Of a stretch of DNA of 64,000 bases, positions 17,000 to 38,882 are shown piece by piece. The number at the start of each line of letters is the position of its first letter. Position 1 is the first letter of the stretch. The notes beneath the pieces are model-generated. The model did no database searches. It had not been told where the DNA came from and saw only the letters and a list, made by a program, of their open reading frames with translations. Origin of the DNA: Octopus vulgaris (lineage: Eukaryota); contig OX597828.1 of NCBI GenBank assembly GCA_951406725.2, positions 20,398,001 to 20,462,000 on the forward strand, in the 5' to 3' direction. Both the position numbers and the translations under genes were made by a program.

Positions 17000-17124
17000 T
17001 GGCTTACAGCTGTTTCCAGTAGTCGTTATAGGTACATCATCGATAGATTTATTCAACTGGTCTATCGATCAATTGAGGTGAATTGACCGACCTAAGAAAA
17101 TCAATGCTAGTTTCGTCAGAGCCA
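17000..17124 (-). ncRNA. Type-I hammerhead motif with canonical core and long helix II
   Basis: Minus strand: UGGCU-CUGACGA-[~95 nt containing UAGGU/ACCUA and AUCGAUAGA/UCUAUCGAU stems]-GAAAC AGCU GUA-AGCCA. Perfect 5-bp helix I; the base of helix II pairs imperfectly. Confidence 0.75.
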
Positions 17125-17619
17125 TTTCTGGAACAAGCTGAGCACTTGAGGAATGTGTGTGTATAGGTGTGTGTGTGTGTGTGTGCGTGTGTGTGTGTGT
17201 GTGATGCATCGATTTTACAATAATAATATCGTGTTTGTATGAGCGTGTGTCATGACACTGCCTTCATTGGCGAAGTTTTATCCACGACATACACAGAGAA
17301 ACACGCACAGAAAAAAACAACAAAATATTGATGTCATTTTTACTGTTATTATTCTAGAATATGAACAGCCAATGTTGTTATTGTCGTTGATGTTATTGTT
17401 TCGCCCAAGGTCAGCCCTGTCCAAACTTCCCCATAGATTATTTTTTGTGTATGTCCAGCACGAGACATTGTTCAAAATGTCCAACCACGTTTTTAAGATA
17501 CTTTTTCCGATTTTAATGAAGACTTGGGTGCTATTTCTGATCATTCAATGGACCGTATAGAGATTACCGTAAGCTGGTTCTCAAAAGCAAGAATCACAAA
17601 ACTTCGCGCGGTGAAAATT

Positions 17620-19960
17620 ATAGTAGTAGTAGTAGTAGTAGTAGTAGTAGTAGTAGTAGTCATTGTAATACAGGTGGTAGTAGTAGTAGTAGAAGTGATG
17701 TTGGCGATGGAGATGGTGATTGTTGTGGTTGTGGTTGTGATGCTGACGATGGTAGTGTTGCTCATGGTTGTGGCAGTGGTGGCGGTAATTTTGTTGGTGG
17801 TGGTGGTGGTAGTATTTTTTAATACTAAGTGTAGTTTTAGAAATAATGATATTAATAATAATAATAATAATAACAATAATAATAATAATAATAATAATAA
17901 TAATAATAATAATAATAATAATAACTACAGCAACAACAACAAAAATAACAACAACAACAATAATAAAGGCCAATAACATCTAGTCTAGAGAACATATCTG
18001 TGTCATTCTTCAGAATGGTAATAATACTAGACAGCTGCAATGTATTAAAAGGTTTCCAGACCTGAACTAAAATATATATCCCATCACCACCACCACCACC
18101 ATCACCACCACCATCACCACCACTACCACCACGCCGGCACCTCATGCAACCTGACCATTTTGTTACAGTTAATAATGCAGTATCTTATAGTTCTCCTCTC
18201 GTTAAAGATCTCTATTGAGAATAACGTTATGTATGTGCGCGCCGCTTTGCTTAGATTTGCGAAAATCTTGACATGCAGGTATGATAATAATAATAATAAT
18301 AATAATAATAATAATAATAATAATAATAATAATAATAATAATAATAATAATAATAATAATAATAGCAATAATAATAATAGTAAAAATAGTAATAATAAAA
18401 ATGATAGTAATAATAATAATAAAAATGGTAATAATGTTATTATCATTATTATTATTATTATTATTATTATTAATAATAATAATAATAATAATAATAATAA
18501 TAATAATAATAATAATAATAATAGCAATAATAATAATAATAGTAATAATAGTAATAATAGTAATAATAAAAATGATAGTAATAATAGTAATAAAAATGGT
18601 AATAGTATTATTATTATTATTATTATTAATAATAATAATAATAATAATAATAATAATAATAATAAATGCCCTGACGCAGTACCAGGCAGTGGCTCTCATG
18701 GCTTCTGATCTTAACTGATTGGAAGTGTTATCATGTACGTTGTTTTGTATTGGTATAAAAGATGGGCTACAGCAAATATTCTGCTCAATACCACAGATTT
18801 GCTTGTCAGTTGTTTGACCTTAACCAGTTGAGCATGTCCCTTAGTGGCTGACGATATGTGCATCTCTGATCACGAGCAGAAGTAGTGGGGGAGCATCATA
18901 GCCATGTGTTGTGAGGGATTCTTTGGGGTTTGAATAATTCACCTCTGGAAACATGGGTGGTTCTTTCAACATCCTTAAACAACCCTTATTCAGGGACCTT
19001 TTGAGCGGGATGGGCTACTCAACCTGAAGAAAATTCTAACTGGGCCCCACCTGCAAGGTCATTAGCTGTTTATCTTGATATGAGATCACCATGTCGCGCA
19101 CATATGGTTGTGATGCATGTGCCTGGTGTACCTTTATCAGACGGGTAGTGATGATGGGTATATTGGGCTTCGTATATTTTACCCCAGTGTCACTTTGATG
19201 GCTTGAACTGCTCTCTCACTCAATGCTAATAATAATAATAGTAATGATAATGATAATAATAATGATAAAAATAATAGTAATAATAATAATAACAATAATG
19301 ATGATAATGATAATAATGATGATGATGATGATGATGACGACGATGATGACGATGATGATGATGATAATAATAATAATAATAATAATCATAGTAATAATAA
19401 TAGCAATAATAATAATAATAGTAATAATAGTAATAATAAAAATGATAGTAATAATAGTAATAAAAATGGTAATAGTATCATTATTTTTATTATTATTATT
19501 AATAATAATAATAATAATAATAATAATAATAATAATAATAATAATAATAATAATAATAATAATAATAATAATAATAATAGTAATGATAATGATAATAATA
19601 ATGATAAAAATAATAGTAATAATAATAATAACAATAATGATGATAATGATAATAATGATGATGATGATGATGATGATGATGATGATGATGATGATGATGA
19701 CGACGATGATGACGATGATGATGATGATGATAATAATAATAATAAAAATAATAATAATAATAATAATAATAATAATAATAATAATAATAATAATAATAAT
19801 AATAATAATAATAATAATAATAATAATAATAATTTTTACGTTGAATAGATGCTCCTGTAGCCAGTGCAACGGCTGCAACACCACTAGCGGCAGTAGTAGT
19901 AGTAGTAGTAGTAGTAGTAGTAGTAGTAGTAGTAGTAGTAGTAGTAGTAGTAGTAGTAAT
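17620..19960. repeat. Large compound trinucleotide field (GTA, GTG, AAT, GAT) hosting a retroposon
   Basis: Directly visible. Confidence 0.95.
18666..19223 (+). mobile_element. ~555-bp non-coding retroposon in (TAA)n (longest copy)
   Basis: Closely similar copies at 25529-25995 and 31395-31765; all end CTCTCTCAC(T/C)CAAT followed by (AAT)n. Confidence 0.85.
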
Positions 19961-20180
19961 CCGGCAAAGTTGCTTACTTTCGGATGAGTTAAGTGTCGGT
20001 TTGTGAGGAGACTTATCAATCAGTTAATGTCGGAAAATATTGGAATATCGGAATTATGTTGTTGTTGCTGTTGTTGTTGTTTAGCCCTAGGCCAGACGTA
20101 ACCACGCATTATCTACATATGATTAAAGTAGTATCCAGTCGTGACAGGCTACCGTTATCGACACATATTGAAAAAACTTG

Positions 20181-20438
20181 CTACGTCGGAAGGCACGAGC
20201 GAAGAGGTCGTCCGCGGGATCGAACCGGTCGGCGGAACAGCAACAGCGTCCACCAGAGAGCTAACGAAGCGTGCGGCGGACGGCGGCGTGCAGGGAGACG
20301 GTCGCGAGGAAGAGCCCGTCGTAGTTGTCGTCGTGCAGGAAGCGCGAGGCGGAGCGGCGCGGTCCTGGCTGCGTGAGCAAAAGCATGTAGGCGCACGGCA
20401 GCGACGATGGCTAGGCGTAGGGGAGGAAGGAATACCAT
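20181..20438. other. High-GC, CpG-rich island with prokaryote-like GC3 bias
   Basis: 122/180 G+C counted over 20221-20400; 31 consecutive G/C-ending codons on the minus strand at 20270-20362. Confidence 0.8.
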
Positions 20439-37029: not shown

Positions 37030-37719
37030 TATACTTAAATGATAAACTTCTGGAAAGTTGTACAGGCTTTTACTGTCACATTCTTTTTACTTGTCACACT
37101 CTGTGTCACGCTGAATCTTCCCGAGAACTACGATAAGTGTACACGTGTCTGTGGAATGCTCAGCCACTTGCACGTTAATTTCACGAGCAGGCTGTTCCGT
37201 TGATCAGATCAACTTGAACCCGCGTCGTCGTAACCGACGGAGTGCGACGAATATATAATATATATGGATGCAAATATGTATATGCCCATCTTTTATATTT
37301 TACTTGCTGCAGTCATTGAACTGCGGCCATGCTAGAGCACTGCCATGCATGTACATGTATATCTGTCTGTATATATATATCTTTATAATCAAGGATAAAA
37401 TCTATATATGACTTTATCAAGTAGCCAGTGTGTAATAAACCATATAAGTAAAAATTAATAGAAAATATATAATTATATAAATAAAATTCTAGTAAGGGCG
37501 CTTATGTGTAGCGCCACAGGATAGAAATAGACGCCAAAGAGCTTTAAGAACTACAGTATTTACAACTGGCACGGGATGAAAGCGAGGGAAATGAACAAAA
37601 GAGATTTTTAAAAAAGGTTTAACCTTTTATATATATATATATACTTATTTTTGAAATGTATGCGTGACGTTCAATCAAATAATAATATAAATATATATAT
37701 ATATATATATATATATATA

Positions 37720-37982
37720 AAATTCATTAAAATTTAGATCAGATGAATATGGTACTAATTTTAAAGGCACCAGAATTTAGTATGGTATTATCCATATAAT
37801 TGAAAATGGGGTGGTTATAATCAAACATAAGCAACAAGGATATCCAGAAGTAATGCAGTACGATCGTTTTAAGTGACTCCATTTAATTGACCAATGCAAA
37901 CATTACATCAATTTAAGATATAGAGTAATCTTCAGCTGTATATCGTACTGCATTACCTCTGGATATCCTTGTTGCTTATTTT
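37720..37982. mobile_element. Fold-back element between (TA)n tracts, with a decayed long-helix-II hammerhead (37856-37938, minus)
   Basis: 38-bp arms ATAAGCAACAAGGATATCCAGA(A/G)GTAATGCAGTACGAT; minus strand CAG-CUGAAGA-UUACUC[...]GAGUCA-CUU-AAAAC GAUC GUA-CUG (G12 lost). Same family as 21852. Confidence 0.7.
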
Positions 37983-38776
37983 TTATATATATATATATAT
38001 ATATATATATATATATATATATATATATATTTAAGTGAAAAATTGATGGATTTTTCCCTTATGAGGTTTTTCACGCTAACTACTTGATAAATTCTTATAA
38101 AGATTTTATTCTCTTTTTAAATTATATATATGATTAATATTAATATTAGGGAAGTTATTTCCGAGTCCACAGGGAGAGAAATTCAATTTAGTGGTACGAA
38201 ATGAATTACTCACTGTATTATATATATATATATATATATAGACAGATAGATAGATAGATAGATAGATAGATAGATAGATAGATAGATAGATAGATAGATA
38301 GATAGATAGATAGATAGATAGACAGATACATATATATATGTACATACATACACACACACACACACATATATATATATATATATATATATATATATATATA
38401 TATATATATATATATATATATATATATATATATATCATTATTTGGAAATGGATGCGTGACTTTCAACAAATAATAATATAAATAGTATATGTATGTATGT
38501 ATATATATACATAATTAATATTAATATTAGGGAAATTATTTCCGAGTCCACGGGGGAGAGAAGTTCAATTTAGTGGTACTTAAATGAATTACTCACTGTA
38601 TTATATACATATATATAGATATATATATAGATAGGTTTAAGAGACAGAATCACCCTCAAGCAACTCAATCATCATTGAACGACATTATCCACGAAAGGTA
38701 CATATAGAGCTAAATATCAAAATTATCAAAGTTAATAACTTCAATTCTTATTCCAAATCATATACTTTACATTATA

Positions 38777-38882
38777 TAGACTACGCGCGTTTCATGACAA
38801 CATATCCTCAATGTGGCTGAAATAGAATGTCTCGAAACACTATATCATATTAAAACGATTATATTGCCAATCTTCAGGTCTA
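38777..38882 (-). ncRNA. Best-preserved type-I hammerhead motif, long helix II
   Basis: Minus strand: UAGAC-CUGAAGA-U-UGGCAAUAUA[~55 nt]UAUGUUGUCA-U-GAAAC GCGC GUA-GUCUA. 5-bp helix I, 10-bp helix II, palindrome ACGCGCGT. Confidence 0.85.

Follow-up and report, generated by a model that had tools for sequence, protein, structure and literature searches.

The window analysed here, to which all coordinates refer, is a stretch of 64,000 nt of Octopus vulgaris DNA (GCA_951406725.2, OX597828.1:20,398,001-20,462,000). It contains four hammerhead ribozyme motifs with a greatly extended helix II. They lie on the minus strand at the positions assigned to them in an earlier note on this DNA, and they form part of the 3′ ends of Hydra-clade Penelope-like elements (PLEs), a context absent from that note. 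The motifs are the following.

38777..38882, minus strand: hammerhead A; CUGAAGA, GAAAC-GCGC-GUA, helix I of 5 bp, helix III ACGCGCGU; C3 at 38877, 77-nt helix II insert at 38794-38870, G12 at 38793, predicted cut after 38782
17000..17124, minus strand: hammerhead B; CUGACGA, GAAAC-AGCU-GUA, helix I of 5 bp, helix III ACAGCUGU; C3 at 17119, 96-nt insert at 17017-17112, predicted cut after 17005; basal helix II damaged
21852..21939, minus strand: hammerhead C; CUGAAGA, GAAAC-AAUU-GUA, helix I of 5 bp, helix III ACAAUUGU; C3 at 21934, 59-nt insert at 21869-21927, predicted cut after 21857
37856..37938, minus strand: hammerhead D; CUGAAGA, AAAAC-GAUC-GUA, helix I of 3 bp; C3 at 37935, 58-nt insert at 37871-37928, A in place of G12 at 37870, predicted cut after 37859

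The hammerhead motifs and their host elements

The type I order CUGANGA...GAAA...UH is intact in hammerheads A, B and C. The first boxes, the paired helix I of all four motifs, the GAAAC-palindrome-GUA segment of three of them and the loss of G12 in the fourth are as the earlier note had described them. The same is true of the 10-bp basal helix II of hammerhead A, which follows a U-U pair and is partly made up of G-U pairs. The expansion of helix II is also real, but its length had been given as 45-95 nt, whereas the measured spacing between CUGANGA and GAAA is 58-96 nt. Helix III is an 8-nt palindrome in all four motifs, with four distinct centres (GCGC, AGCU, AAUU and GAUC). The window copy of hammerhead D is likely to be dead, judging from its G12A change; position 12 is G in 26 of 29 copies of the family. 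In hammerhead B the basal helix II is broken by a C where 24 of 29 family copies have a G, as read from the alignment, and it fails to form under constrained folding. An Rfam scan of the window returned no hammerhead among the 150 listed of 209 matches, only microsatellite-driven miRNA matches. The Rfam hammerhead families likewise gave no match at the gathering threshold in five loci. Since short-insert loci were included, the miss is not specific to long inserts.

Each window motif belongs to one 5′-truncated copy of a different multi-copy repeat. The genome of the animal (2.8 Gb, 227 contigs) was searched with these repeats; 40 of the first-look candidates were scored and 30 loci were compared per family. 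The copies in the window are listed below.

38476..38937, minus strand: family A, 5′-truncated Hydra-type PLE 3′ end, with a microsatellite interrupting part of it; 406 candidates, 40 scored
16953..17155, minus strand: family B, 5′-truncated PLE 3′ end; 1002 candidates, 40 scored
21804..22104, minus strand: family C, 5′-truncated PLE 3′ end; 2130 candidates, 40 scored
37685..37943, minus strand: family D (sister to C), PLE 3′ end whose truncation lies immediately 5′ of the hammerhead; 2092 candidates, 40 scored
37942..37989, plus strand: short piece of the D 3′ end in inverted orientation, fused to the truncated 5′ end and beginning 6 nt before the predicted cut
27930..27991, minus strand: family E, decayed but complete motif, with CUCAUGA as its first box (27980-27986), shortened insert of 33 nt, GAAAC-AGCU-GUA

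Copies of families A to D have 3′ ends fixed at ~140-300 nt from the motif start and ragged 5′ ends, and second copies in inverted orientation are common among their loci. The inverted junction at 37942..37989 is typical of PLEs. The length of the insert is a family trait: it is 76-78 nt in 27 of 29 copies of A, 96 nt in 25 of 29 of B, 59 nt in all 29 of C and 58-59 nt in all 29 of D. The match at 27931-27946, which had been taken for a half-motif, does exist, but it is part of the complete though decayed motif of family E. At least two of the 11 fetched relatives of E carry inserts of ~55-60 nt and a helix I of the form UUCAC/GUGAA.

The link to PLEs is provided by the upstream sequence. A GIY-YIG-type endonuclease is encoded 0.9-1.3 kb upstream of the hammerhead in families A, B and C, and the hammerheads of the sampled families are found 0.3-1.7 kb 3′ of the endonuclease. 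In family A the endonuclease end lies 0.9-1.0 kb upstream in loci L010 and L022. A B-type endonuclease is located ~0.9-1.0 kb upstream of the B hammerhead on the same strand in loci L331 and L320, and two further loci combine the endonuclease end with the B upstream region. In family C, loci L066/L121, L253 and L259 have homology extending all the way between endonuclease and hammerhead. Family D is joined to the PLEs through its sister C alone, with which it has the hammerhead and the tail in common; no D copy examined reaches an open reading frame (ORF) or endonuclease of its own. Two endonucleases considered for family D were rejected: the one in L259 belongs to a C copy and the one in L096 probably to a neighbour. 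The endonuclease-hammerhead pairings of L163 and L294 used in the tree described below may also be those of mere neighbours.

A near-complete relative of C, locus L151, shows the organization of the element: (TA)n, an inverted 3′ piece, a 138-nt direct repeat, the ORF, the 3′ region and (TA)n. The ORF is interrupted by one stop, and the 0.9-kb 3′ region holds a hammerhead with a 58-nt insert. Direct terminal repeats, inverted 5′ copies, 5′ truncation, a short tail and (TA)n targets, all hallmarks of PLEs, were observed. The L151 protein contains RWR (for RWK), DKT, a CxCX5C linker and CxxC and CxH around E and N, and CCHH is absent. The set of RWK, DKT, CxCX5C, CxxC and CxH without CCHH is described as the Hydra signature by Craig et al. 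2021 (PMC8557442). Membership of the Hydra clade is assigned from these motifs in L151, as set against published descriptions and rows. In Pfam the matches to RVT_1 (E 0.011) and GIY-YIG (E 4e-4) are both weak and below the cut-off, and a first scan of the whole ORF pieces gave no family. A total of 303 relatives at 35-47% identity were found, some of them from marine invertebrates, and there was an Argonauta match.

Two other types of element were considered. Naiad PLEs have an N-terminal endonuclease and no canonical hammerhead, and were rejected because the endonuclease of L151 is C-terminal. Non-LTR retrozymes are short tandem repeats without an ORF, each unit bearing one hammerhead; here the copies are dispersed and 5′-truncated, an endonuclease lies upstream, and no tandem array is seen at these sites.

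Further PLE sequences were noticed. The middle of the L151 ORF carries long asparagine-rich insertions between the reverse transcriptase and the endonuclease, which bring it to ~1010 aa versus ~700 aa in most relatives. In the window, a remnant of a Hydra-type endonuclease end from another PLE family is located at 15989-16243 on the plus strand (profile E 2e-20), directly after a (TA)n run, with no hammerhead seen downstream. Hydra-type PLE ORFs, most of them with hammerheads, also occur in contigs filed as bacterial genomes (L431-L444); these are likely to represent animal host DNA in the assemblies.

Abundance, conservation and folding of the long helix II

The long form is abundant in this genome. 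The pattern CTGAHGA-N8..120-GAAAC-N4-GTA gave 42,072 matches, versus 1,629 for the reversed pattern used as a control, a 26-fold excess. With the insert restricted to N8..30, 8,009 matches were obtained (376 for the reversed control). Above background, ~32,800 of 40,400 matches (81%) have inserts longer than 30 nt. When N4 was replaced by 5-6 nt, 18,210 matches were found versus 4,105 in the control, including a frequent family with 10-nt inserts as well as families with 50-56 nt. Even if all 5-6-nt matches are counted as short, long inserts make up at least ~60% of the core matches over both patterns. The surroundings of the first 100 listed matches were rescanned and yielded 100 distinct motifs in 45 clusters, with three nested pairs left in. 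Their inserts measure up to 30 nt in 22 cases, 31-44 nt in 8, 45-70 nt in 58 and more than 70 nt in 12. About 36 families in this sample carry long inserts (at least 45 nt), and 14 of 33 cluster at 54-63 nt. Related families with graded lengths, for example 21, 28, 49 and 61 nt, are also present.

A dispersed repeat of ~92% identity, found in the window at 18755-19200 (plus strand), 25550-25993 (minus strand) and 31417-31765 (minus strand), likewise contains CUGACGA and GAAAC, 93 nt apart. It was left uncounted: the sequence at 18848/25900 (GAAACAUGGG) has neither the palindrome nor helix I, and the repeat is probably not a hammerhead.

Relatives from other organisms served as an outside control. 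An alignment of 46 related proteins led to 78 metagenome and 14 genome-collection loci, which were scanned for hammerheads with inserts of up to ~130 nt. A hammerhead was detected in 77 of these 92 loci, and its insert measures 10-31 nt when the best-scoring motif per locus is taken, many of the loci being near-duplicates. The helix II arm of the four window motifs is three to five times longer. The Hydra rows in File S2 of Craig et al. 2021 likewise have short inserts (PMC8557442). Among the sequences examined the long arm appears to be particular to this host lineage. Within this lineage it occurs beside several deeply split endonuclease lineages, although the endonuclease tree of 26 rows, with 4 of 23 branches well supported, is too poor to separate a single from a repeated origin.

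The expectation that the core is better conserved than its flanks is barely borne out within families, where identity is 95.6-98.7% in the core, 92.2-98.4% in the insert and 88.6-97.6% in the flank. This is to be expected of copies that decay after insertion, and the comparison across families is the informative one. There the expectation holds, as helix I, helix II and the palindrome covary. All 36 clusters with inserts of at least 45 nt were used, none being dropped, and permutation across families was the control. Helix I pairs 1-4 are formed in 92, 91, 69 and 59% of the families versus 47, 42, 36 and 40% after permutation, helix II pairs 2-4 in 86, 87 and 76% versus 42, 38 and 39%, and the palindrome pairs in 76 and 72% versus 47 and 26%. 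Past position 6 the pairing of helix I is down to background.

The insert itself tends to fold. Measured with dinucleotide shuffles, its median z is -1.8 versus 0.1 for the flanks, and z is below -1 in 24 of 36 inserts versus 2 of 36 flanks. One imperfect hairpin is formed in 28 of 33 inserts, taken from the rows that retain some helix I and palindrome. Better folding than in shuffled sequences is also seen in the inner part of the insert (median z -0.5, p 0.005). An alignment of 17 related sequences from the C/D lineage has 89% of its cells paired, and 9 of 23 pairs, two of them in the distal hairpin, change on both sides. When the gapped alignment was run through RNAalifold, only helix I and the distal hairpin came out, along with an alternative pairing for the GAAAC region.

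Two functions suggested for the extension in the earlier note found no support; a third, protein binding, is considered further below. As a dimerisation domain it would be redundant, given that the 8-nt palindrome of helix III already explains pairing, and palindromes capable of kissing are not enriched in the insert (18.1 of 33 versus 22.4 in shuffled sequences). A replacement of the contact between loop I and loop II was considered for base-paired contacts only, and neither a pseudoknot nor a distal stem I signal was obtained. A pseudoknot between the insert and the 3′ flank, significant against cross-family permutation (p 0.006), vanishes against own-sequence shuffles (5.31 versus 5.37), and no distal stem I is seen in the sampled families. 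Of the contact that fast canonical hammerheads make between loop I and loop II, no base-paired form is seen, and PLE hammerheads are reported to be usually without it too. At most 9 of 33 families have any one 6-mer in common, and the recurring ones are AU-rich. AAUAAA/AUUAAA in inserts of the C/D lineage had suggested a poly(A) signal, but the idea was rejected, as these words show no overall enrichment in inserts (4.2 of 33 families versus 5.7 shuffled, and 5 of 26 versus 4.0). Within 60 nt downstream of the predicted cut the same words are enriched (11.4 of 33 families versus 4.4 shuffled, L171-L258), more weakly in a stricter set (6 of 26 long and 5 of 7 short families). In that position they may mark 3′-end processing of the element RNA.

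Predicted cleavage and possible role of the long arm

We consider it probable that these Hydra-type PLE 3′ ends carry type I hammerheads which, as modelled here, would be cut after GUA only as palindrome-paired dimers or with the help of an element protein. Calculated as a monomer, helix III costs +2.4 kcal/mol, whereas the duplex gains 6.4-13.3 kcal/mol; helix III is predicted to be stable only as an intermolecular duplex. Poor closure in one strand and good closure between two fit the dimer model of PLE hammerheads. Such hammerheads are described as acting as dimers with low activity (PMC4209133; PMC6765202). Protein-assisted cleavage is reported for one PLE, with uncut RNA as the main template (PMC11167929). 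In L151 the sequence past the predicted cut is the one found ahead of the ORF. If transcripts are tandem or read-through, their upstream hammerhead would cut ~210 nt before the ORF start and would thus set the 5′ end of the element RNA, and the 3′ hammerhead would mostly stay uncut in the RNA that is reverse-transcribed. The long helix II may extend, at its apex, a stem for which loop I offers no partner, helix I being short (3-6 bp) and open. The imperfect hairpin would be kept so that the basal pairs still close, without being needed for the chemistry, and the extension would be free in sequence and fairly free in length. A tolerated extension that is kept hairpin-shaped is the simplest reading.

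The start sites of family D copies bear on cleavage. Thirty-nine copies (L446-L484) were chosen only by the segment after the predicted cut; 30 of them continue past the cut on its upstream side, 7 begin no more than 3 nt from it and 2 begin further in. The templates were mostly uncut, and the excess of starts at the predicted cut is a weak hint of cleavage. Another nine starts fall at the base of helix II, 9-19 nt upstream of the cut, and the stretch at 20-55 nt has none. This pile-up would fit stalling of the reverse transcriptase at the hairpin. Many of the 5′ truncation points of family D are fold-backs at 4-nt palindromes. At 37927-37937 (minus strand) a pyrimidine-rich stretch ending in CAG directly precedes the CUGAAGA box of D and resembles a 3′ splice site, though not all families have it; in Penelope of D. 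virilis an intron is reported to end at helix I (PMC4209133).

Several observations weigh against this account of cleavage and tolerated extension. For none of the four lone copies is the three-way junction the lowest-energy structure; in free folding helix I reaches a probability of 0.08-0.3 in three of the four. The start-site excess was noticed post hoc (p about 0.016), and in four of the seven near-cut starts the copy folds back at a UGCA palindrome, which might happen in the absence of cleavage. The 44 cells changed on both sides in the 17-sequence alignment, a count reached in none of 500 shuffles and compared with at most 10 in slid controls, come from related rows picked partly on an AAUAAA-like word, and the count leans favourable. 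Lastly, the clustering of inserts at 54-63 nt is not predicted by a purely tolerated extension.

This clustering and the host specificity keep alive the reading that the long helix II is a functional domain, a selected hairpin of about two turns that binds an element protein or a host double-stranded RNA (dsRNA) factor, or docks non-canonically on helix I, and so switches cleavage. The distal hairpin has compensatory changes and its inner part folds better than shuffles, long inserts recur beside several endonuclease lineages, and none of the 77 outside hammerheads exceeds 31 nt, pointing to something particular to the host lineage. We nevertheless regard such a domain as unlikely. The inserts have no widely shared 6-mer, and neither a pseudoknot nor a distal stem I stands out once the proper control is used; related families grade in length from 21 to 28, 49 and 61 nt, families with 9-29-nt inserts thrive in the same genome (the 8,009 matches above), and the tree is too poorly resolved to establish repeated origins. 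A bolder form of the idea, which we hold to be more doubtful still, is that many Hydra-type families were repeatedly driven to an imperfect hairpin of ~25 bp serving as an allosteric module, with an element protein or a host dsRNA factor such as an RNA-editing enzyme deciding on cutting. If true, aptazyme-like hammerheads would here have their first large natural family, of which a single genome holds >30,000 copies.

The motif might instead no longer cut, its fold being retained near the 3′ end of the element as a signal for recognition or priming. That 30 of the 39 D copies were made from RNA uncut at this site agrees with such a role, as do reports on an Anolis element whose ribozyme mutants left in vitro insertion unaffected and for which no RNA-seq ends at the cut are described (PMC11167929). 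We find this quite improbable: the catalytic boxes (demanded by the search pattern), a cleavable GUH and the dimer palindrome are kept across dozens of otherwise unrelated families, and the 26-fold excess over the reversed pattern indicates that the boxes are not due to chance. A mere chance meeting of two short words in AT-rich repeat DNA can practically be dismissed and is refuted for the four motifs by the genome-wide counts, the cross-family covariation and the position downstream of PLE endonucleases. A few sample rows do lack helix I or the palindrome, which fits the ~4% control rate, and the repeat at 18848/25900 is possibly such a case.

Other features of the window were noticed. A 278-aa open frame at 14738-15574 (minus strand) resembles a Tc1/mariner transposase by eye. 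A SINE-like repeat of 177-190 nt occurs in head-to-tail pairs at 32773-33106 and 41673-42044. Near-perfect inverted repeats around microsatellite cores at 8502-8653 and 22121-22202 are the source of the spurious miRNA matches.

Relation to known hammerheads

Engineered hammerheads tolerate aptamers in stem II. In the literature searched no report of long-helix-II hammerheads in cephalopods was found, with Lunse 2017 and Arkhipova 2017, which may bear on novelty, standing outside the comparison. The words "hammerhead" and "ribozyme" are absent from the main text of the 2026 repeat annotation of Octopus vulgaris (PMC13282606). The earlier note had argued that length-limited searches would miss motifs of this kind, and this is correct for the RNAmotif descriptor of Cervera and de la Pena 2014, which allows a stem II of 3-7 bp and a loop of 3-10 nt and so tops out at 26 nt (PMC4209133), versus 58-96 nt here. 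The same descriptor, together with relaxed versions, was used by Craig 2021 (PMC8557442). Counts of hammerheads in animals rest on descriptors that limit helix II to ~26 nt, and censuses with this limit can be badly low: in this genome alone ~33,000 motifs above background exceed it. The motif allows many "unknown" repeats of the genome to be assigned to PLE ends. The dozens of natural variants, along with their short-armed sister families, form a ready panel for studying the role and the switching of PLE hammerheads.

Among the closest known systems are the Hydra-clade elements described by Craig 2021. Their type I hammerheads are composed alike, with helix I, CUGANGA, often an extra U/A, helix II and GAAAC...GUH, and the elements also agree in the position of the motif after the ORF, the (TA)n targets and the ORF motifs; an octopus family, Hydra-1_Obim, is listed among them (PMC8557442). 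They differ in having stems of 3-7 bp and loops of 3-10 nt, whereas helix II is mostly 45-100 nt long here and helix III is mostly an 8-nt palindrome. The min-HHR and palindromic-helix-III hammerheads of metazoan PLEs have a similarly short helix I without a defined loop 1, a palindromic helix III and a proposed dimeric cleavage (PMC4209133). Their helix II is also longer than usual, but is given as only 7-8 bp. A direct precedent for the long arm is provided by PLE-X1_sMoe and PLE-X1_sTam of Selaginella, which are marked as deviant and have a long loop II (35 and 28 nt, ~54 nt in all for sMoe; PMC8557442). These are two endonuclease-less plant families; in the octopus there are dozens, with copies numbering tens of thousands. 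Similar to the elements studied here, Poseidon PAc of Anolis (Frangieh et al. 2024) carries a PLE hammerhead in its terminal repeat, and its template is mainly uncut RNA. It belongs to another clade, its ORF starts inside stem II and its cleavage needs protein (PMC11167929), whereas the ORF here starts ~210 nt after the predicted cut. The discontinuous Clec2 hammerhead is a further example of natural tolerance of a very large insertion in one helix; it is, however, of type III, with 150-1500 nt inserted in helix I, and resides in a single-copy mammalian 3′ UTR (PMC6155905). The chemistry and the type of element are already known, and what is added here is the scale, the outside control and the blind spot of standard searches.

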